A stretch of DNA of 8,681 nucleotides. It comes from a virus. Its lineage: Duplodnaviria > Heunggongvirae > Uroviricota > Caudoviricetes. The notes below the pieces were generated by a model that did not search any database, had not been told where the DNA came from, and saw only the letters and a list, made by a program, of their open reading frames with translations. Made by a program: the position numbers and the translations under genes. Location of the stretch: the IMG/VR virus record IMGVR_UViG_2778261165_000009, one strand, 5' to 3'. Shown one piece after another: positions 556-5,977 of the stretch (position 1 is its first letter; each line of letters starts with the position of its first letter).

Positions 556-995
556 ACTTTGTCCTGAAACTGGCGCGAGAGATGGGGAGACCCGACTGGC
601 GCGCCATGCTTGCCGGGATGACATCCACCGAATATGCCGACTGGCGACGTTTTTACTGCACGCATTATTTTCAGGATACCCAACTGGACGCTCATTTTTC
701 CGGGCTGATGTACGCCGTACTCAGCCTGTTTTTTGGCGATCCGGATATGCATCCGGCGGATTTCAGTCTGCTTGCTCCAGCGTGTGAGGAAGAGCAGACG
801 GAGATGCCGGACGAGGAAGAAATGCTGATGCAGAAAGCGACAGGAGTTGCCGGAGGCGTCCGGTTCGGAGGGGACGGAGGGCGCGATATTTCACCTTCTG
901 CGGATGTGGTGGATGTCAGCGAGGATGATGTTGCATTAATGATGGCTTCAGCGGGGATTTCCGGAGGTGTGAGATATGTCCCAGCCAGCGGGTGA
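133..995 (+). CDS. G-T: Tail assembly chaperone G-T fusion made by -1 frameshift, join(133..537,537..995), about 288 aa
   Basis: G frame 133-537, then the -1 frame continues from 537 (AFEGELNFVLKLAREMGRPDW...) to TGA 993-995. This is the conserved G/GT arrangement upstream of the tape measure gene in long-tailed phages. The T-frame part includes an acidic tract (EEEQTEMPDEEEM). Confidence 0.85.
531..537 (+). promoter_or_regulatory. Programmed -1 ribosomal frameshift slippery heptamer A_AAA_AAG (G to T frame)
   Basis: In the G reading frame the codons are TCA AAA AAG (529-537), an exact X_XXY_YYZ heptamer. The -1 frame is closed by TGA at 516-518 and open from 519 to 995, so the shift has to occur between 519 and 552, and this is the only in-phase slippery heptamer in that interval. 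It lies 5 codons before the G stop. Confidence 0.75.
963..967 (+). promoter_or_regulatory. Shine-Dalgarno GGAGG for H
   Basis: GGAGG lies 8 nt upstream of ATG 976, embedded in the 3' end of the T frame. Confidence 0.65.
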
Positions 996-3588
996 TCTGG
1001 TTATTGATTTGAGTCTGGATGCGGCCCGGTTTGATGAACAGATGGCCCGGGTACGCCGTCATTTTTCCAGTCTGGAGGCGGATGCCAGAAAAACCGCCAG
1101 TACTGTTGAACAGGGGCTGAGCCGACAGGCGCTGGCTGCACAAAAAGCCGGGATATCAGTCGGACAGTATAAGGCTGCCATGCGCACACTGCCCGCACAG
1201 TTCACGGATATTGTCACTCAGCTTGCCGGTGGTCAGAATCCCTTCCTTATCATGCTGCAGCAGGGGGGGCAGATCAGCGATTCATTCGGTGGACCGCTCA
1301 GCCTGCTTACCCTGCTGAAGGAGGAACTTCTCGGGATCAGGGATGCCTCTGAATCATCAGAGGAGTCGCTGTCAGATACGGCAAATGCACTGGCTGAAAA
1401 TGCCCGGAATGCCGGTGAGCTGGGACGATTTATGTCGGTGGCCCGTGTGGCGGCAGGTGGCGGGGTTGCCGTACTGGCCGCGCTTGCTGCCGCCGCCTGG
1501 CAGGCAGAGCAGGCTGACCGGGCCTTATTGCGTTCACTGATCCTGACCGGAGGGGCGGCTGCCACCACAACGGCAGAATTGTGGAAAATGGCCGGGGTGA
1601 TCAGCGATGAAGCCGGTGGTGGTATCAGACAGGCGGCAGAAAATCTGGCCCGTCTGGCAGAAAGCGGGAAATATACCGCCGGGCAGCTACGGATCATGGG
1701 GGAAACCTCTCAGAGATGGCTGCAGACGGTGGGGGACGATGCCGGGAAGGTGGAAAAAGCCTTTGAAGGGATTGCAGCAGATCCGGTGAAGGCGCTGGCC
1801 TCCCTGAATCAGCAGTATAACTTCCTGAGCGTTTCCCAGTTACGCCATATTGATGAGCTTGAGCGCACGAAAGGTAAACAGGCTGCGGTGACGGAGGCGA
1901 TGTCCCTGTTTGCGGATGTCATGAATGCACGTCTGGAGCAACTTGATAAAGCGGCCACGCCGGTGGAAAAAATCTGGGACGATGTTAAAACCTGGACTTC
2001 TGACGCATGGGCATGGATAGGTGATCATACACTGGGGGCACTCAGTCTGATCACTGACGTGGTGGCCGGAACCGTTGAACAAGTGAAGCTGCTGCTTGTG
2101 CAGGGGGATCTGGCGCTGGCTGAATTTATTCAGTCAGCCTGGGAAACGACAAAGAATGTGCCCGGCGTTGGTGCGTTGTTTGGTGAACTGGCAGAAGAGA
2201 ACCGCGTATTTATTGAGAAAACAAAACGCGATGAACTGGCGCTGAGAAAATCCATTGCGGAACGGGATGCGCGTATACGCCAGGGGGAAATGGGGTACAT
2301 CAACCGCTCGCGTGCAACAGGCGTCAGCAAAGGTCCTGGGCAGCAGGAAGCCGTCAGCCGTCTGGCTGAAGAGCTGACAGGTAAAAAGCATACATCACCG
2401 AAAACGCGCTCTGCCGGGGAGAGGGAAGAGGAGCAGGCAAGAGAGGCTCTGCTTGCCCTTGAAGCTGAGCTCAGGACGCTGGAAAAACACAGCGGTGCGA
2501 ATGAGAAAATCAGTCGGCAGCGCCGTGATTTATGGAAGGCGGAAAGTCAGTATGCGGTCCTGAAAGAGGCTGCCACGAAACGGCAGTTATCCTGGCAGGA
2601 AAAATCCCTGCTGGCCCATGAGAAAGAGACGCTGGAGTACAAACGCCAGCTGGCTGACCTGGGCGACAAGGTTGAACACCAGAAACGCCTGAATGAGCTG
2701 GCACAGCAGGCGGTGCGGTTTGAAGAGCAGCAGAGCGCGAAGCAGGCCGCCATCAGCGCAAAAGCCCGCGGTCTCACTGACCGTCAGGCGCAGCGGGAGT
2801 CTGAAGCGCAGCGTCTTCGGGACGTGTACGGTGATAATCCGCAGGCGCTGGCCCGGGTCACCGGGGCACTGAAACAGACATGGGCGGATGAAGACATGCT
2901 GCGCGGTGACTGGCTGGCCGGGCTGAAGTCCGGCTGGGGGGAGTGGGCGGAAAGTGCGACGGACAGTTTTTCGCAGGTTAAAAGCGCGGCCACGCAGACC
3001 TTTGACGGTATTGCACAGAATATGGCAGCGATGCTGACCGGCAGCGAACAGAACTGGCGTGGTTTCACCCGTTCTGTGCTCTCCATGCTGACAGAGATTT
3101 TTCTGAAGCAGGCGATGGTGGGGATAGTCGGGAGTATCGGCAGCGCCATTGGCGGTGCTTTCGGTGGTGGTGCGTCTGCCTCCACGGGGACGGCCATTCA
3201 GGCTGCGGCGGCGAACTTCCATTTCGCGACCGGGGGATTTACGGGAACCGGCGGCAAATATGAGCCAGCGGGGATTGTTCACCGTGGTGAATTTGTCTTC
3301 ACGAAGGAGGCAACCAGCCGGATTGGTGTCGGCAACCTGTACCGCCTGATGCGGGGCTATGCGGAAGGTGGTTATGTGGGCGGTGCCGGAAGTCCGGCGC
3401 AGATGCGGCGGGCTGAAGGCATTAATTTTAATCAGAACAATCACGTGGTGATTCAGAACGACGGTACGAATGGTCTGCCAGGTCCACAGATGATGAAGGC
3501 AGTGTATGACATGGCCCGCAAGGGTGCCCGTGATGAAATCCAGGCACAGATGCGCGATGGTGGCCTGTTCTCCGGAGGTGGACGATGA
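976..3588 (+). CDS. H: Tail tape measure protein H (870 aa)
   Basis: An 870-aa ORF directly after G-T. The N-terminus MSQPAGDLVIDLSLDAARFDEQMARVRRHF and the C-terminal third (LLALEAELRTLEKHSGANEKISRQRRDLWKAESQ ... GGLFSGGGR) resemble lambda gpH as I recall it. It is Ala/Gln/Glu-rich and helical in character, with a Gly-rich hydrophobic segment near the C-terminus. Its start overlaps the T end by 20 nt. Confidence 0.93.
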   Translation: MSQPAGDLVIDLSLDAARFDEQMARVRRHFSSLEADARKTASTVEQGLSRQALAAQKAGISVGQYKAAMRTLPAQFTDIVTQLAGGQNPFLIMLQQGGQISDSFGGPLSLLTLLKEELLGIRDASESSEESLSDTANALAENARNAGELGRFMSVARVAAGGGVAVLAALAAAAWQAEQADRALLRSLILTGGAAATTTAELWKMAGVISDEAGGGIRQAAENLARLAESGKYTAGQLRIMGETSQRWLQTVGDDAGKVEKAFEGIAADPVKALASLNQQYNFLSVSQLRHIDELERTKGKQAAVTEAMSLFADVMNARLEQLDKAATPVEKIWDDVKTWTSDAWAWIGDHTLGALSLITDVVAGTVEQVKLLLVQGDLALAEFIQSAWETTKNVPGVGALFGELAEENRVFIEKTKRDELALRKSIAERDARIRQGEMGYINRSRATGVSKGPGQQEAVSRLAEELTGKKHTSPKTRSAGEREEEQAREALLALEAELRTLEKHSGANEKISRQRRDLWKAESQYAVLKEAATKRQLSWQEKSLLAHEKETLEYKRQLADLGDKVEHQKRLNELAQQAVRFEEQQSAKQAAISAKARGLTDRQAQRESEAQRLRDVYGDNPQALARVTGALKQTWADEDMLRGDWLAGLKSGWGEWAESATDSFSQVKSAATQTFDGIAQNMAAMLTGSEQNWRGFTRSVLSMLTEIFLKQAMVGIVGSIGSAIGGAFGGGASASTGTAIQAAAANFHFATGGFTGTGGKYEPAGIVHRGEFVFTKEATSRIGVGNLYRLMRGYAEGGYVGGAGSPAQMRRAEGINFNQNNHVVIQNDGTNGLPGPQMMKAVYDMARKGARDEIQAQMRDGGLFSGGGR

Positions 3589-3914
3589 AAACCTTCCGCT
3601 GGAAAGTGAAACCCGGTATGGATGTGGCTTCGGCCCCTTCTGTAAGAAAGGTGCGCTTTGGTGATGGCTATTCCCAGCGAGCGCCTGCCGGGCTGAATGC
3701 CAACCTGAAAACGTACAGCGTGACGCTGTCTGTCTCCCGTGAGGAGGCCACGGCGCTGGAGTCGTTTCTGGCTGAGCACGGGGGCTGGAAGGCCTTTCTG
3801 TGGACGCCGCCTTATGGTTACAGGCAGATAAAGGTGACCTGCGCAAAATGGTCGTCGCGGGTCAGTATGCTGCGTGTTGAGTTCAGCGCAGAGTTTGAAC
3901 AGGTGGTGAACTGA
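3585..3914 (+). CDS. M: Tail tip assembly protein M (109 aa)
   Basis: The 109-aa product MKTFRWKVKPGMDVASAPSVRKVRFGDGYSQRAPAGLNANLKTYSVTLSV... matches the size and recalled sequence of lambda gpM. Its start overlaps the H stop as ATGA, and SD GGAGG is at 3574-3578. Confidence 0.93.
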   Translation: MKTFRWKVKPGMDVASAPSVRKVRFGDGYSQRAPAGLNANLKTYSVTLSVSREEATALESFLAEHGGWKAFLWTPPYGYRQIKVTCAKWSSRVSMLRVEFSAEFEQVVN

Positions 3915-4612
3915 TGCAGGATATCCGGCAGGAAACATTGAATGAATGCACCCGTGCGGAGCAGTCGGCCAGCGTGGTGCTCTGGGAAATCGATCTGACA
4001 GAGGTCGGTGGAGAACGTTATTTTTTCTGTAATGAGCAGAACGAAAAAGGTGAGCCGGTCACCTGGCAGGGGAGGCAGTATCAGGCGTATCCCATTCAGG
4101 GGAGCGGTTTTGAACTGAATGGCAAAGGCACCAGTACGCGCCCCACGCTGACGGTTTCTAACCTGTACGGTATGGTCACCGGGATGGCGGAAGATCTGCA
4201 GAGTCTGGTCGGCGGAACGGTGGTCCGGCGTAAGGTTTACGCCCGTTTTCTGGATGCGGTGAACTTCGTCAACGGAAACAGTGACGCCGATCCGGAGCAG
4301 GAGGTGATCAGCCGCTGGCGCATCGAGCAGTGCAGCGAACTGAGCGCGGTGAGTGCCTCCTTTGTACTGTCCACGCCGACGGAAACGGATGGCGCTGTTT
4401 TTCCGGGACGTATCATGCTGGCCAACACCTGCACCTGGACCTATCGCGGTGACGAGTGCGGTTATAGCGGTCCGGCTGTCGCGGATGAATATGACCAGCC
4501 GACGTCCGATATCACGAAGGATAAATGCAGCAAATGCCTGAGTGGCTGTAAGTTTCGCAATAACGTCGGCAACTTTGGCGGCTTCCTTTCCATTAACAAA
4601 CTTTCGCAGTAA
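3914..4612 (+). CDS. L: Tail tip assembly protein L (232 aa), with a C-terminal Cys cluster
   Basis: 232 aa, the same length as lambda gpL. Start overlaps the M stop as TGATG. The C-terminal cysteines (CTWTYRGDECGYSG ... KDKCSKCLSGCKF) are consistent with the reported iron-sulfur cluster site of gpL. Confidence 0.92.
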   Translation: MQDIRQETLNECTRAEQSASVVLWEIDLTEVGGERYFFCNEQNEKGEPVTWQGRQYQAYPIQGSGFELNGKGTSTRPTLTVSNLYGMVTGMAEDLQSLVGGTVVRRKVYARFLDAVNFVNGNSDADPEQEVISRWRIEQCSELSAVSASFVLSTPTETDGAVFPGRIMLANTCTWTYRGDECGYSGPAVADEYDQPTSDITKDKCSKCLSGCKFRNNVGNFGGFLSINKLSQ

Positions 4613-4616
4613 TCCC

Positions 4617-5360
4617 ATGACACAGACAGAATCAGCGATTCTGGCGCATGCCCGGCGGTGTGTGCCTGCGGAGTCGTGCGGCTTCGTGGTGAGAACGCCG
4701 GAGGGGGAGCGGTATATCCCTTGTGTGAATATCTCTGCAGAGCCGGAGGCGTATTTTCGTATTGCACCGGAAGACTGGCTGCGGGCAGAGATGCAGGGGG
4801 AGATTGTGGCACTGGTCCACAGTCATCCCGGTGGTCTGCCCTGGCTGAGTGAGGCCGACCGGCGGCTGCAGGTGCAGAGTGATTTGCCGTGGTGGCTGGT
4901 CTGCCGGGGGGCGATTCATAAGTTCCGCTGTGTGCCGCATCTCACCGGGCGGCGCTTTGAGCACGGGGTGACGGACTGTTACACGCTGTTCCGGGATGCT
5001 TATCATTTGGCGGGGATTGAGATGCCGGATTTTCATCGCGAGGATGACTGGTGGCGTAACGGTCAGAATCTCTATCTGGATAATCTGGAGGCCACAGGGT
5101 TGTATCAGGTGCCGTTGTCATCAGCACAACCGGGCGATGTGCTGCTGTGCTGTTTTGGTTCATCGGTGCCGAATCATGCCGCCATTTACTGTGGTAATGG
5201 CGAGCTGCTGCACCATATTCCTGAACAACTGAGCAAACGAGAGAGGTATACCGACAAATGGCAGCGACGCACACACTCCCTCTGGCGTCACCGGGCATGG
5301 CGCGCATCTGCCTTTACGGGGATTTGCAACGATTTGGCCGCCGCATCGACCTTCGTGTGA
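4617..5360 (+). CDS. K: Tail tip assembly protein K, long form (247 aa): N-terminal JAB/MPN metalloprotease-like domain plus C-terminal NlpC/P60 domain
   Basis: ATG 4617 is 4 nt after the L stop with no strong SD, suggesting coupling. JAB motifs are E-S-C-G (4671-4682) and H-S-H-x7-S-x2-D (HSH at 4818-4826). NlpC/P60-like Cys (TDCYTL, Cys codon 4977-4979) and His (PNHAAIY, 5175-5177) are present. The listed ORF 4542-5360 starts inside L, so the first ATG after the L stop is taken as the start. Confidence 0.85.
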   Translation: MTQTESAILAHARRCVPAESCGFVVRTPEGERYIPCVNISAEPEAYFRIAPEDWLRAEMQGEIVALVHSHPGGLPWLSEADRRLQVQSDLPWWLVCRGAIHKFRCVPHLTGRRFEHGVTDCYTLFRDAYHLAGIEMPDFHREDDWWRNGQNLYLDNLEATGLYQVPLSSAQPGDVLLCCFGSSVPNHAAIYCGNGELLHHIPEQLSKRERYTDKWQRRTHSLWRHRAWRASAFTGICNDLAAASTFV

Positions 5361-5929
5361 AAACGGGGGCTGAAGCCATCCGCGCACTGGCCACACAGCT
5401 CCCGGCGTTTCGTCAGAAACTGAGCGACGGCTGGTATCAGGTACGGATTGCCGGGCGGGACGTCAGCACGTCCGGGTTAACGGCGCAGTTACATGAGACT
5501 CTGCCTGACGGCGCTGTGATTCATATTGTTCCCAGAGTCGCCGGGGCCAAGTCAGGGGGCGTATTCCAGATTGTTCTGGGGGCTGCCGCCATTGCCGGAT
5601 CATTCTTTACTGCCGGAGCCACCCTTGCAGCATGGGGGGCAGCCATTGGGGCCGGTGGTATGACCGGTATCCTGTTTTCTCTCGGTGCCAGTATGGTGCT
5701 CGGTGGTGTGGCGCAGATGCTGGCACCGAAAGCCAGGACGCCCACGGCAGCAAGTACAGATAACGGCAAACAGAACACCTATTTCTCCTCACTGGATAAC
5801 ATGGTTGCCCAGGGCAATGTTCTGCCGGTTCTGTACGGTGAAATGCGCGTGGGGTCACGCGTGGTTTCTCAGGAGATCAGCACGGCAGACGAAGGGGATG
5901 GTGGTCAGGTTGTGGTGATTGGTCGCTGA
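5258..5929 (+). CDS. I: Tail assembly protein I (223 aa): N-terminal ubiquitin-like domain plus C-terminal Gly/Ala-rich hydrophobic segment
   Basis: 223 aa, the same length as lambda gpI. Start ATG 5258 has GAGAGG 11 nt upstream. It overlaps the K 3' end by 103 nt in a different frame. The C-terminal half (VFQIVLGAAAIAGSFFTAGATLAAWGAAIGAGGMTGILFSLGASMVLGG) is hydrophobic. Confidence 0.9.
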   Translation: MAATHTLPLASPGMARICLYGDLQRFGRRIDLRVKTGAEAIRALATQLPAFRQKLSDGWYQVRIAGRDVSTSGLTAQLHETLPDGAVIHIVPRVAGAKSGGVFQIVLGAAAIAGSFFTAGATLAAWGAAIGAGGMTGILFSLGASMVLGGVAQMLAPKARTPTAASTDNGKQNTYFSSLDNMVAQGNVLPVLYGEMRVGSRVVSQEISTADEGDGGQVVVIGR

Positions 5930-5947: not shown

Positions 5948-5968
5948 AAACCGCCTGCGGGCGGTTTT
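5948..5968 (+). other. Perfect 8-bp GC-rich stem-loop (AAACCGCC-TGCG-GGCGGTTT) followed by a T-run; terminator-like or RNA-stability hairpin between I and J
   Basis: Read directly: left arm 5948-5955, loop 5956-5959, right arm 5960-5967, then T at 5968. It sits in the 60-nt I-J spacer and ends 10 nt before the J SD. Confidence 0.45.
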
Positions 5969-5977
5969 GTCGTATAT

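Follow-up and report, generated by a model that had tools for sequence, protein, structure and literature searches.

Overlapping Tail Tip Genes K and I of a Lambda-Like Virus: a Lineage-Specific Overlap and a Candidate Processing Pair

The tail tip genes K and I of a lambda-like prophage or phage share 103 nt that are read in two different frames. This overlap is real but already known, because it has been in the lambda reference genome since 1982 and the idea that K trims I was published in 2006; the overlap itself is thus a rediscovery of the reference annotation and of the 2006 hypothesis. What is new here is the clade-specificity of the overlap, the limitation of dual coding to positions 5297-5357, and the finding that the C-terminal tail of K reads as a frame-shifted copy of the N-terminal motif of I. 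From the analysis of a window of 8,681 nt (the whole stretch of DNA studied, from IMG/VR record IMGVR_UViG_2778261165_000009), we suggest that its K-I junction is of the lambda tail-tip type, that the K protein cuts off the beta-grasp domain of I, and that the overlap is a by-product, with I translated independently. In our judgment this combined reading is probably correct, if far from certain.

The K/I Overlap

The overlap and the two genes that form it are as follows.

4617..5360, + strand: gene K, tail tip assembly protein K; 247 aa plus stop (ORF, Pfam, homology, AF2 model)
5258..5929, + strand: gene I, tail tip assembly/plug protein I; 223 aa plus stop (ORF, Pfam PF06805)
5258..5360, + strand: overlap of K and I; 103 nt, the frame of I being -1 to that of K

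Both the ORF list and the sequence itself indicate that K terminates with TGA 5358-5360 and that I opens with ATG 5258-5260. As (5258-4617) mod 3 = 2, I lies in the -1 frame relative to K, such that the first position of an I codon coincides with position 3 of a K codon, the second with K position 1 and the third with K position 2. The 103-nt out-of-frame overlap that the earlier note had placed at 5258-5360 is therefore right, by ORF coordinates and by direct reading. The start of K is most likely ATG 4617; the mechanical ORF opens at GTG 4542, inside L. The encoded protein is 95-96% identical to the annotated gpK of lambdoid phages and 94-96% identical to gpK clusters in the database, and its gene sits between L and I in the order M-L-K-I-J.

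That an alternative frame is open counts for little by itself; it is homology and conservation that are decisive for the overlap. The phase of I contains 10 stops across the 247 codons of K, and when the K protein was held fixed and its codons redrawn by K usage, the final 35 K codons were free of stops in this phase in 3.6% of the simulated trials. The overlap is seen in every one of the lambda-clade loci examined (291/291), with a length of 97, 103 or 106 nt. Its columns contain zero indels among 158 unique haplotypes, and motifs in both reading frames are conserved in distant relatives. The minus-strand ORFs over the region (e.g., 5160-5396, 78 aa) are mechanical ORFs of GC-rich DNA.

In lambda (NC_001416; K 14276..14875, I 14773..15444), the 103-nt overlap, the frame relation and the gene order H-M-L-K-I-J are the same as in the window. 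Around the K/I junction the two sequences differ at 3 of 221 bases, and overall the window has ~96% DNA identity to the best phage records. The lambda reference K lacks one base and is annotated as 199 aa, whereas the K of the window has the full 247 aa; because the reference K is truncated by this missing base, the 247-aa form is the one to use in constructs.

Lineage Distribution and Origin of the Overlap

The overlap is 4 nt long in T1, 4 nt in Pseudomonas phage D14Q (a relative of the F-pyocin with a short K that has no tail) and 8 nt in phi80. In HK97-like and Pasteurellaceae phages K and I do not overlap, and the ES18 clade has a 58-nt overlap in the same phase as that of the lambda clade. 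The 103-nt type of overlap is lineage-specific. T1, phi80 and D14Q resemble the window in that K and I are adjacent, with the Shine-Dalgarno sequence of I inside the 3' end of K, but they differ from it in their 4-8 nt overlaps, in their coupling geometry (ATGA-type) and in a K protein that ends right past ...RHKD... Compared with these phages, the window has ~20 extra K residues and a 13-codon I leader, which result in an overlap of 103 nt without termination-reinitiation geometry.

The extra K residues form the following feature.

5289..5357, + strand: C-terminal tail of K (residues 225-247, HRAWRASAFTGICNDLAAASTFV), an extension specific to the clade and lying inside the 5' end of I

This tail is missing from the short-K homologues, which are the majority. 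Its motif, F-x-G-I-x-N-D-[LI]-A, is common to the lambda clade, ES18 and Pasteurellaceae phages (in the latter it is separately encoded), and FTGIxNDLA is a +1-nt reading of the universal I motif [LF]-Y-G-D-L-Q-R-F-G. AF2 predicts a helix at 230-244, with pLDDT dropping from 67 to 35. The tail is co-encoded with the first predicted beta-strand of I, the proposed substrate of K.

We envisage the overlap as an evolutionary by-product and not as a regulatory device. In the branch of the lambda, ES18 and Pasteurellaceae phages, K would have gained its ~20-aa tail by read-through into the 5' end of I, a direction that is read from four clades without a rooted tree. The tail may later have become useful, since it appears to have been retained in the Pasteurellaceae phages after K and I separated; the K-tail DNA of a Mannheimia phage and I 5' DNA are strongly diverged (~56% identity by inspection), so that this un-overlapping route can only be inferred. 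In the lambda clade, initiation of I would have shifted 39 nt upstream to ATG 5258 with its own Shine-Dalgarno sequence, and as a result the overlap would have grown from ~60 to 103 nt.

Selection on the Two Reading Frames

The overlap falls into two parts that differ in constraint.

5258..5296, + strand: part A of the overlap, with I codons 1-13 (MAATHTLPLASPG); a leader found only in the lambda clade and without I-frame constraint
5297..5357, + strand: part B of the overlap, where I codons 14-34, which open the beta-grasp domain, coincide with the K tail; the dual-coding core

In part B, the diversity at K position 3 is.148 versus.291 in K-only sequence (p=.0013) and that at I position 3 is.156 versus.423 in I-only sequence (p=1e-6), by statistics that ignore phylogenetic non-independence and recombination. 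This dual-coding signature is replicated in the 58-nt overlap of the ES18 clade. Part A, measured in the same way, has diversities of.057/.049/.191 at K positions 1/2/3, and hence I position 3 is its least variable position. Codons 1-13 of I are missing from distant I homologues and are modelled with pLDDT <50. Purifying selection acts on both frames at 5297-5357 and not at 5258-5296, where the constraint is on the K frame only. The claim that both proteins constrain the whole of 5258-5360, for which a synonymous-rate analysis had been proposed (run here as positional diversity), consequently holds for the second part of the overlap and fails for the first. The diversity map also shows where in the overlap mutations synonymous in one frame can be made.

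The Start of Gene I

The start of I is ambiguous: it is either ATG 5258 or ATG 5297, the latter giving a protein of 210 aa, and the overlap is accordingly 103 or 64 nt. Both lengths, 223 and 210 aa, occur at NCBI (P0006 and P0012), and the 210-aa form has 5268 member sequences. The upstream start is preceded by a candidate ribosome binding site.

5241..5246, + strand: Shine-Dalgarno-like GAGAGG for I ATG 5258, made of the K codons GAG AGG

It is possible, though we think it unlikely, that the true start is Met14 (ATG 5297), in which case the overlap is 64 nt, codons 1-13 are untranslated and the 103 nt are partly an annotation artefact. Distant I proteins begin at the position equivalent to Met14, and in the ES18 clade the start at this place is a GTG, which a stop codon often directly precedes. 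The lack of I-frame constraint in codons 1-13, the annotation of the 210-aa form by NCBI and a start codon at I position 14 in 158/158 haplotypes (ATG 155, TTG 2, GTG 1) point in the same direction. ATG 5258, however, is also retained in 158/158, across three different K codons (AAA, TCA and CGA). Start-codon conservation cannot choose between the two sites, because both are valid starts in all of these haplotypes and both lie on conserved K Trp codons. The translation signals are less even-handed. No Shine-Dalgarno sequence precedes ATG 5297 (-1.5 kcal/mol, 91st percentile of background), and the predicted fold shows this codon paired. For ATG 5258 the Shine-Dalgarno:anti-Shine-Dalgarno energy is -9.3 kcal/mol, and both this codon and its Shine-Dalgarno sequence are unpaired. 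Among the upstream haplotypes listed, GAGAGG, GAGGAG or GAGGGG persists even where K residues change, the AGG within it is a rare codon, and its equivalent is annotated as the ribosome binding site in phage 21. The literature searched yielded no usable ribosome-profiling or N-terminal data on this start.

The further suggestion of the earlier note, that the overlap might couple the translation of I to that of K, is unsupported in its classical termination-reinitiation form: K ends 100 nt past ATG 5258 and 61 nt past ATG 5297, I has its own strong Shine-Dalgarno sequence, and the RNA is unstructured. A masking of the I ribosome binding site by RNA structure until K is translated was rejected as well, as the fold of 5210-5330 is no stabler than that of shuffled sequences (z = +1.08) and leaves the upstream start exposed. 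We presume instead that translation of I would be independent of K termination.

The -1 phase of I recalls the programmed frameshift of lambda G/GT, and one could imagine that the overlap serves to produce a K-I fusion in the same manner; fused forms are mentioned by Iyer et al. (PMC1779556), and fusion ORFs are found in the databases (P0146, P0013, P0010). Those ORFs, however, are singletons or near-singletons (1-2 member sequences) whose junctions vary, as expected of indels or sequencing errors, and I has its own Shine-Dalgarno sequence and ATG. The K frame contains no X XXY YYZ heptamer in 5200-5360, and a stable downstream structure is not predicted there, the z value being that given above. 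The missing slippery heptamer and the missing stimulatory structure rule out such a fusion for practical purposes, and we regard it as extremely improbable.

Two Peptidase Domains in K

4623..4910, + strand: K JAB/MPN+ metalloprotease domain, residues 3-98; Pfam PF14464 Prok-JAB, E 1.6e-14
4947..5288, + strand: K NlpC/P60 (C40) papain-like peptidase domain, residues 111-224; Pfam PF00877, E 2.3e-13

Both Pfam matches exceed the curated cut-offs. The JAMM motif E...HxH-x7-S-x2-D is complete in K; its residues are E19 (4671-4673), H68-S69-H70 (4818-4826, within HSHPGGLPWLSEAD), S78 (4848-4850) and D81 (4857-4859), and all six are invariant in 40 K homologues of 29-96% identity. In the second domain, the corresponding residues are C121 (4977-4979), H187 (5175-5177) and H199-H200 (5211-5216), of which C121, H187 and H199 are invariant in the same 40 homologues. 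The AF2 model of K has a pLDDT of 86, and its JAB domain has 77-96 per 10-residue block, mostly ~95. In Foldseek searches the JAB model matched PfJAMM1 (5ld9/5lda), also in its complex with the ubiquitin-like SAMP2, with a probability of 1.00, an rmsd of 2.7 A over 110 columns and TMt.65-.68, and it also matched Rpn11, CSN5 and AMSH; the NlpC/P60 model matched C. difficile hydrolases and MepS, with 4hpe, 9ubf and 8xup (MepS) among the entries. Pfam, invariant catalytic residues and fold matches thus agree with the earlier assignment of K as a JAB plus NlpC/P60 protein, and direct reading places H68, H70 and C121 where they had been said to be. As judged from its sequence and model, K is a protein with two intact predicted peptidase active sites, those of a JAMM metalloprotease and of an NlpC/P60 cysteine peptidase. 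The literature searched contained no report of gpK acting as a Zn-dependent protease that cuts a beta-grasp substrate behind its C-terminal glycine.

Gene I and the Proposed Junction

5297..5548, + strand: I N-terminal ubiquitin-like (MoaD/ThiS-type beta-grasp) domain, residues 14-97
5531..5560, + strand: end of the beta-grasp domain and linker, P92-R-V-A-G96-A97-K98-S-G-G101; proposed scissile region
5561..5728, + strand: Gly/Ala-rich hydrophobic segment of I, residues 102-157, helices H1/H2, predicted membrane-inserting
5657..5926, + strand: I C-terminal plug region resolved in virions, residues 134-223

The I protein is nearly identical over its full length to PDB 8IYK chain I (E 5.5e-139) and has the layout of the Lambda_tail_I family: the PF06805 domain (residues 14-97, E 1e-28), a Gly-rich linker, the hydrophobic helices (described in PMC11101478 and PMC10721106) and the C-terminal plug, the PDB 9E7M chains covering query residues 133-222. 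Its AF2 model has a low confidence (mean pLDDT 43, from a shallow alignment; 56-69 in the N-terminal domain, residues 14-94) and was used only for a fold-class search. In this search the best 50 PDB matches of the N-terminal domain were all beta-grasp ubiquitin-like proteins; the top match was MoaD (1fm0_D; TM 0.69, rmsd 3.1 A, probability 1.00, E 7.6e-3), and ThiS, Urm1, SAMP1, SUMO and ubiquitin were matched as well. Such a structure prediction had been proposed as a check on the ubiquitin-like character of I, and from this low-confidence model its N-terminal domain would indeed have the beta-grasp fold.

The linker RVAGAKSGG, earlier singled out as a candidate processing site at about 5540-5560, is present as residues 93-101 and has the exact span 5534-5560. 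As a region it remains a good candidate, whereas the critical residues are probably G96-A97: among 7 distant I homologues P92 and G96 are invariant and position 97 is Ala or Ser, and G100 is not conserved. By hhalign, G96-A97 falls on G80-G81 of MoaD, a weak alignment (E 0.068). The I chain continues past this junction, which is G-A rather than a terminal Gly-Gly. Our best guess for the scissile point is after G96-A97, in a stretch that is encoded beyond the K stop and hence free of the K frame.

Processing of I during Tail Assembly

The published comparative genomics to which the earlier note had alluded exists: Iyer, Burroughs and Aravind (2006, Genome Biol 7:R60; PMC1779556) proposed that K and I are a processing pair, their TAPK/TAPI being the same proteins and their proposal the same as that made here. 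They suggested that the JAB domain of K frees the ubiquitin-like domain of I by cutting at the C-terminal-most glycine before the Gly-rich linker. They also noted that many phages combine JAB with a beta-grasp domain that has a conserved glycine at its end, and that some phages have a K with the NlpC/P60 domain only (PMC1779556). No paper was found showing K to be the protease of I.

In the cryo-EM structures, the C-terminal part of I is the tip plug (PMC10721106, PMC12617516, PMC11101478). The gpI protein is resolved from residue 101 in a closed-tail structure (PMC11101478) and from residue 134/135 in virions (PMC10721106, PMC12617516). Virion mass spectrometry did not detect gpK (PMC10721106) and gave a single gpI peptide with 9.87% coverage, which, if trypsin was used, can only be the C-terminal 22-mer 202-223. 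In lambda the absence of the I N-terminal domain thus rests on missing density and one detected peptide, and disorder is possible. The F-pyocin PA0639/PA0640 of Pseudomonas aeruginosa, the homologues of gpK and gpI in what is a tailocin and not a phage, offers a parallel: mature particles have lost the N-terminal domain of PA0640, stalled tips still carry it, and PA0639, without which no tips form, is missing from the particles (bioRxiv preprint 10.64898/2026.02.24.707460). Overall, the structural and proteomic literature fits a removal of the N-terminal domain of I.

A rather improbable alternative is that I stays uncleaved in lambda-type phages, its beta-grasp domain being flexibly tethered by the Gly-rich linker and so invisible to cryo-EM, and the JAB domain of K binding it without cutting or having another role. 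The structural papers call the domain only unresolved or unseen (PMC10721106, PMC12617516, PMC11101478), one group speculates that it acts on peptidoglycan during infection (PMC11101478), and the mass-spectrometry evidence is that one peptide. The F-pyocin homologue, however, truly loses its domain, as judged by peptide coverage in the wild type versus stalled mutants; three 11 kDa domains would need room within the closed lumen of the tip, or a way out of it; and none of the five predicted tryptic peptides from I residues 17-93 (7-26 aa) is reported in virions.

An alternative that we rate as unlikely, yet clearly more credible than uncleaved I, is that the domain is removed by a host protease or through linker instability, K being a chaperone or maturation factor or cutting some other substrate, such as the tape measure gpH. 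When recombinant PA0640 was produced on its own in E. coli, without the K homologue, host proteases removed its N-terminal region, and in stalled tips the domain persisted despite the presence of the K homologue in the cells (10.64898/2026.02.24.707460). Deletion of PA0639 leads to tip-less tubes (10.64898/2026.02.24.707460), a defect earlier and broader than failed processing would give, and gpH is cleaved to gpH* by a protease that is stated to be unknown (PMC12617516). Against this, the invariance of the complete JAMM motif across such divergent K homologues argues for a conserved catalytic role, and the JAB/beta-grasp pairing is found again in many phages. The breakdown of a membrane-protein precursor in a heterologous host is, moreover, uninformative on events in the tip.

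In the reading that we prefer, K would be a non-virion assembly factor and I would be made as a precursor consisting of a leader (1-13), a beta-grasp domain (14-97), a conserved junction of the form P-x3-G-[AS]-K, a pair of hydrophobic helices and the plug at the C-terminus, the last of these lying in the tip lumen beneath the C-terminus of the tape measure. During tip maturation the beta-grasp domain would be released by a cut at G96-A97 or directly behind it, the JAB domain of K being the most plausible protease. Such a cut would parallel the cleavage after the C-terminal Gly-Gly of a beta-grasp domain by JAMM1, QbsD and Rpn11-type enzymes, and it would license the tip to join the tape measure and the tube.

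Comparison with JAMM/Beta-Grasp Systems

The models of K and I resemble Pyrococcus JAMM1-SAMP2 (PDB 5LDA) and Rpn11-ubiquitin, in which a JAMM protease and a beta-grasp protein are likewise combined and the cut is after Gly-Gly. The K-I pair differs from these systems in having no E1, E2 or conjugation, in a beta-grasp domain that is the N-terminal part of a structural precursor, in a junction that is G-A-K and not G-G, and in a K protein with a second peptidase domain. An E1-like adenylating enzyme was not found in the window, which encodes only the tail genes G/T, H, M, L, K, I and J. At most, K-I is a processing pair and not a conjugation system. QbsD-QbsE and Mec+-CysO are further JAMM/beta-grasp pairs.

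Implications

The picture that emerges is of a gpK that is essential, absent from virions and apparently endowed with two intact peptidase sites, and of a plug protein whose ubiquitin-like domain seems to vanish during maturation; the comparison of homologues points to G96-A97, and not to the SGG residues, as the likely cleavage site. A bolder version, which we offer tentatively and consider possible rather than probable, is that K and I constitute a self-contained processing checkpoint: the JAB domain would cut I after G96-A97 only once the tip is complete and free the beta-grasp domain as a "shield", whose release would let the tape measure and the tube dock, and the overprinted K tail would help to recognize I. 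If this were true, K-I would be a minimal JAMM/ubiquitin-like system without conjugation, gpK would have a function after 50 years, and its tail would document that an overprinted peptide can stay useful once the genes have separated.

The Tail Module and Its K/I Junction

Open reading frames and Pfam matches identify the 8.7-kb window as a lambda-type tail module with the following genes:

133-995, G/T
976-3588, H
3585-3914, M (Pfam Phage_min_tail)
3914-4612, L (Pfam Phage_tail_L)
4617-5360, K, tail tip assembly protein (TGA stop at 5358-5360)
5258-5929, I, tail tip/plug protein (ATG start at 5258)
5990 onward, J

From the positions of the K stop and the I start, the two-frame stretch is 103 nt (5258-5360), and the out-of-frame overlap described in an earlier note is thus confirmed; the I frame is -1 relative to K, so that codon positions I1, I2 and I3 coincide with K3, K1 and K2. 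The residues which that note singled out are also present: H68 and H70 of K within HSHPGGLPWLSEAD, C121 of K within TDCY, and RVAGAKSGG as I residues 93-101 (5534-5560). The length of the overlap contrasts with the short ones of the same operon, which have the usual coupling pattern (T/H, 20 nt, 976-995; H/M, 4 nt, ATGA, 3585-3588; M/L, the single shared base 3914 in TAATG). Upstream, the mechanical K ORF reaches a GTG at 4542, within the 3' end of L (4542-4616); the ATG at 4617, 5 nt past the L stop, is not preceded by a Shine-Dalgarno match (+0.7 kcal/mol), and ribosomes probably get to it via coupling to L. Downstream, a hairpin resembling a terminator (CCGCCTGCGGGCGG, then TTTT; 5951-5972) lies between the I stop (5929) and the J start, an odd place for a terminator, inside a late tail operon and directly ahead of its largest gene; the equivalent site of phage 21 (OL657228) is annotated as a terminator.

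Over 1.7 kb around the junction 267 phage records match, and the best of them, with 96% identity, carry annotations for tail tip assembly proteins K, I, L and J. For the I protein there is also a match to PDB 8IYK chain I (E 5.5e-139). Lambda itself (NC_001416; K 14276..14875, I 14773..15444) has the same 103-nt overlap, with 3 differences over 221 bases around it; the observation has therefore stood in the reference annotation ever since that genome was sequenced. This reference (J02459/NC_001416) is one base short in the K N-terminal region (window 4617-4770 compared with 1133-1290 of L001, the NC_001416 locus): it reads GGAGGC-TATTT, as opposed to GGAGGCGTATTT in both the window and phage 21. 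Because of the missing base, the annotated reference K has 199 aa and lacks the first 48 JAB residues, the catalytic Glu among them. The extra base is found over the same stretch (202 vs 201 nt) in other lambda records and in derivatives of lambda: LC730321 (48,503 bp), DE3, KT232076 and lambda imm21/imm434; these comparisons point to a probable 1982 sequencing error, true K being 247 aa.

Dual Coding and the Start of I

Mean pairwise diversity by codon position among 158 unique lambda-clade haplotypes (overlap free of indels)
K-only, 4958-5257: K1.095, K2.056, K3.291
Overlap part A (I codons 1-13), 5258-5296: K1.057, K2.049, K3.191; I3 (= K2) the least variable class
Overlap part B (I codons 14-34 over the K tail), 5297-5357: K3.148, I3.156, shared K1/I2.046
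I-only, 5361-5660: I1.188, I2.147, I3.423

Dual-coding constraint, which had been expected over the whole of 5258-5360, is apparent in part B, where both "third positions" have about half their usual value (p =.0013 for K3 and p = 1e-6 for I3 versus single-coding sequence, indicative only because the tests ignore shared ancestry and recombination). In the K/I phase hardly any change is synonymous in K and I at once, and such damping is what two frames under constraint are expected to show. The ES18 clade repeats the pattern (.132,.143 and.069, vs.331 and.428 in the single-coding flanks). Part A, however, evolves like K-only sequence, under the K frame alone.

This absence of constraint on I codons 1-13, together with the start position of distant I homologues, would favor initiation at ATG 5297 (Met14, giving a 210-aa form); but that codon has a Shine-Dalgarno energy of -1.5 kcal/mol and is base-paired in the predicted fold, whereas ATG 5258 (Met1) has a strong Shine-Dalgarno sequence, GAGAGG at 5241-5246 (-9.3 kcal/mol), to which a rare AGG codon contributes. 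The listed haplotypes retain GAGAGG, GAGGAG or GAGGGG despite K residue changes, and ATG 5258 is invariant across the K codons AAA, TCA and CGA. Met1 thus seems to us, with a fair degree of confidence, a likelier start than Met14; starting there, I would have a short, unconstrained leader, probably disordered. Both starts may be in use.

The suggestion that the overlap couples I translation to K is not supported for coupling of the classical kind, since the K stop is 100 nt past the I start and termination-reinitiation is inapplicable. Around the I ribosome-binding site no stable RNA structure is predicted (fold z = +1.08), and no slippery heptamer was found in the K frame between 5200 and 5360, which argues against a K-I fusion by programmed frameshift. 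Databases contain K-I fusion ORFs, joined at varying positions within the overlap, and one in-frame K/I deletion (protein entries P0146, P0013, P0010 and P0034). As all are singletons or near-singletons, they most likely reflect indels, errors of sequencing or prophages in decay, not a programmed product.

History of the Overlap

Among relatives, the overlap is 97, 103 or 106 nt in 291/291 lambda-clade loci. In the ES18 clade (about 40 junction types, 80 loci) it is 58 nt, in the lambda phase, in every locus with both gene ends scorable but one, in which K is prematurely terminated; I there starts with GTG at the equivalent of lambda Met14, and a stop codon often lies right ahead of it. The overlap is 4 nt in T1 and Pseudomonas phage D14Q, 8 nt in phi80, and absent in HK97-like mEp234 and Mannheimia phage 535AP2, which have extra ORFs or terminators between the genes. 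The junction is an insertion hot spot in Pasteurellaceae and HK97-like phages (L083 1233-1500; L088 1168-1488; loci L304-L324), with moron-like inserts of small ORFs and terminators, 29 to 930 nt.

Most K homologues stop a few residues past ...RHK, and a tail of about 20 residues occurs only in the lambda, ES18 and Pasteurellaceae clades. Its core, F-T-G-I-x-N-D-L-A, is [LF]-Y-G-D-L-Q-R-F-G read one base later, the latter being the universal N-terminal motif of I, present in all clades including those with a short K. The simplest history would be that the K tail arose through overprinting of the I 5' end. In Pasteurellaceae the tail motif is kept (LDFDG[IV]LNDIA; NFNGMLNDLA at 65% K identity) despite a separation of K and I by 29-930 nt, which suggests that the tail came to have a function of its own; the AF2 prediction for it, of modest confidence, is a helix (residues 230-244).

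Domains of K and I, and Proposed Processing of I

K contains Prok-JAB (residues 3-98) and NLPC_P60 (111-224) Pfam domains. Across 40 homologues (29-96% identity) its JAMM motif is complete and invariant (E19, H68, S69, H70, S78, D81), as are C121, H187 and H199. Its AF2 model (mean pLDDT 86) matches NlpC/P60 hydrolases and JAMM enzymes, including Rpn11, CSN5, AMSH and Pyrococcus JAMM1, both free and bound to ubiquitin-like SAMP2 (5ld9, 5lda; rmsd 2.7 A). For I (Pfam Lambda_tail_I, residues 14-97), a shallow alignment gave a model of poor overall quality (mean pLDDT 43; 56-69 over residues 14-94, below 50 over 1-12 and 95-223). The beta-grasp fold proposed for its N-terminal domain is nonetheless predicted, at low confidence: the 50 best PDB matches are all beta-grasp ubiquitin-like proteins, headed by MoaD 1fm0_D (TM.69, rmsd 3.1 A) and including ThiS, Urm1, SAMP1, SUMO and ubiquitin.

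That K processes I is not an original idea but the published proposal of Iyer, Burroughs and Aravind (2006; PMC1779556), who described the N-terminus of I (their TAPI) as a ThiS/MoaD-like ubiquitin-like domain ended by a conserved glycine and followed by a Gly-rich linker and a C-terminal domain. RVAGAKSGG, the candidate site of the earlier note, lies in the right region, although its SGG residues (S99-G100-G101) are less conserved than G96. P92 and G96 are invariant at the domain end in seven distant I homologues, and hhalign places G96 on the penultimate glycine of E. coli MoaD (a weak alignment, E.068), which makes A97 the counterpart of the MoaD C-terminal Gly. On these grounds the likeliest predicted scissile position is G96-A97|K98.

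Cryo-EM shows gpI of the lambda virion from residue 134/135 onward only (PMC10721106, PMC12617516) and gpI of the closed tail from residue 101 onward (PMC11101478), the N-terminal domain being described as unresolved (PMC10721106, PMC12617516, PMC11101478). Virion mass spectrometry did not find gpK (PMC10721106), and the proteomics table lists one gpI peptide (9.87% coverage). If trypsin is assumed, this would be the C-terminal 22-mer 202-223, the only one of that size, and none is reported of the five peptides, 7-26 aa long, that residues 17-93 would yield. In F-pyocin, the N-terminal part of PA0640, the gpI homologue, is missing from mature particles and kept when deletion of the tube, the adaptor or the tape measure stalls the tip, and the authors propose a proteolytic checkpoint ahead of tip-tube joining (2026 preprint, 10.64898/2026.02.24.707460). 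Tips need the gpK homologue PA0639, particles are without it, and in E. coli host proteases remove this N-terminal part from PA0640 when it is expressed on its own (10.64898/2026.02.24.707460). Processing of I is therefore now experimentally supported in a homologue, but that support does not extend to K as the protease. Which protease acts on I, and what gpK does, is a good bench question, on which our finding is not ahead of the literature.

Implications

The K/I overlap is confirmed and its interpretation partly supported, and both were already known. Bench workers may find use in how the overlap differs in its history from lineage to lineage, in which of its 103 nt are constrained by K only and which are truly dual-coding, in the prediction of G96-A97 as the likeliest cleavage site, and in the base probably missing from K in the reference.
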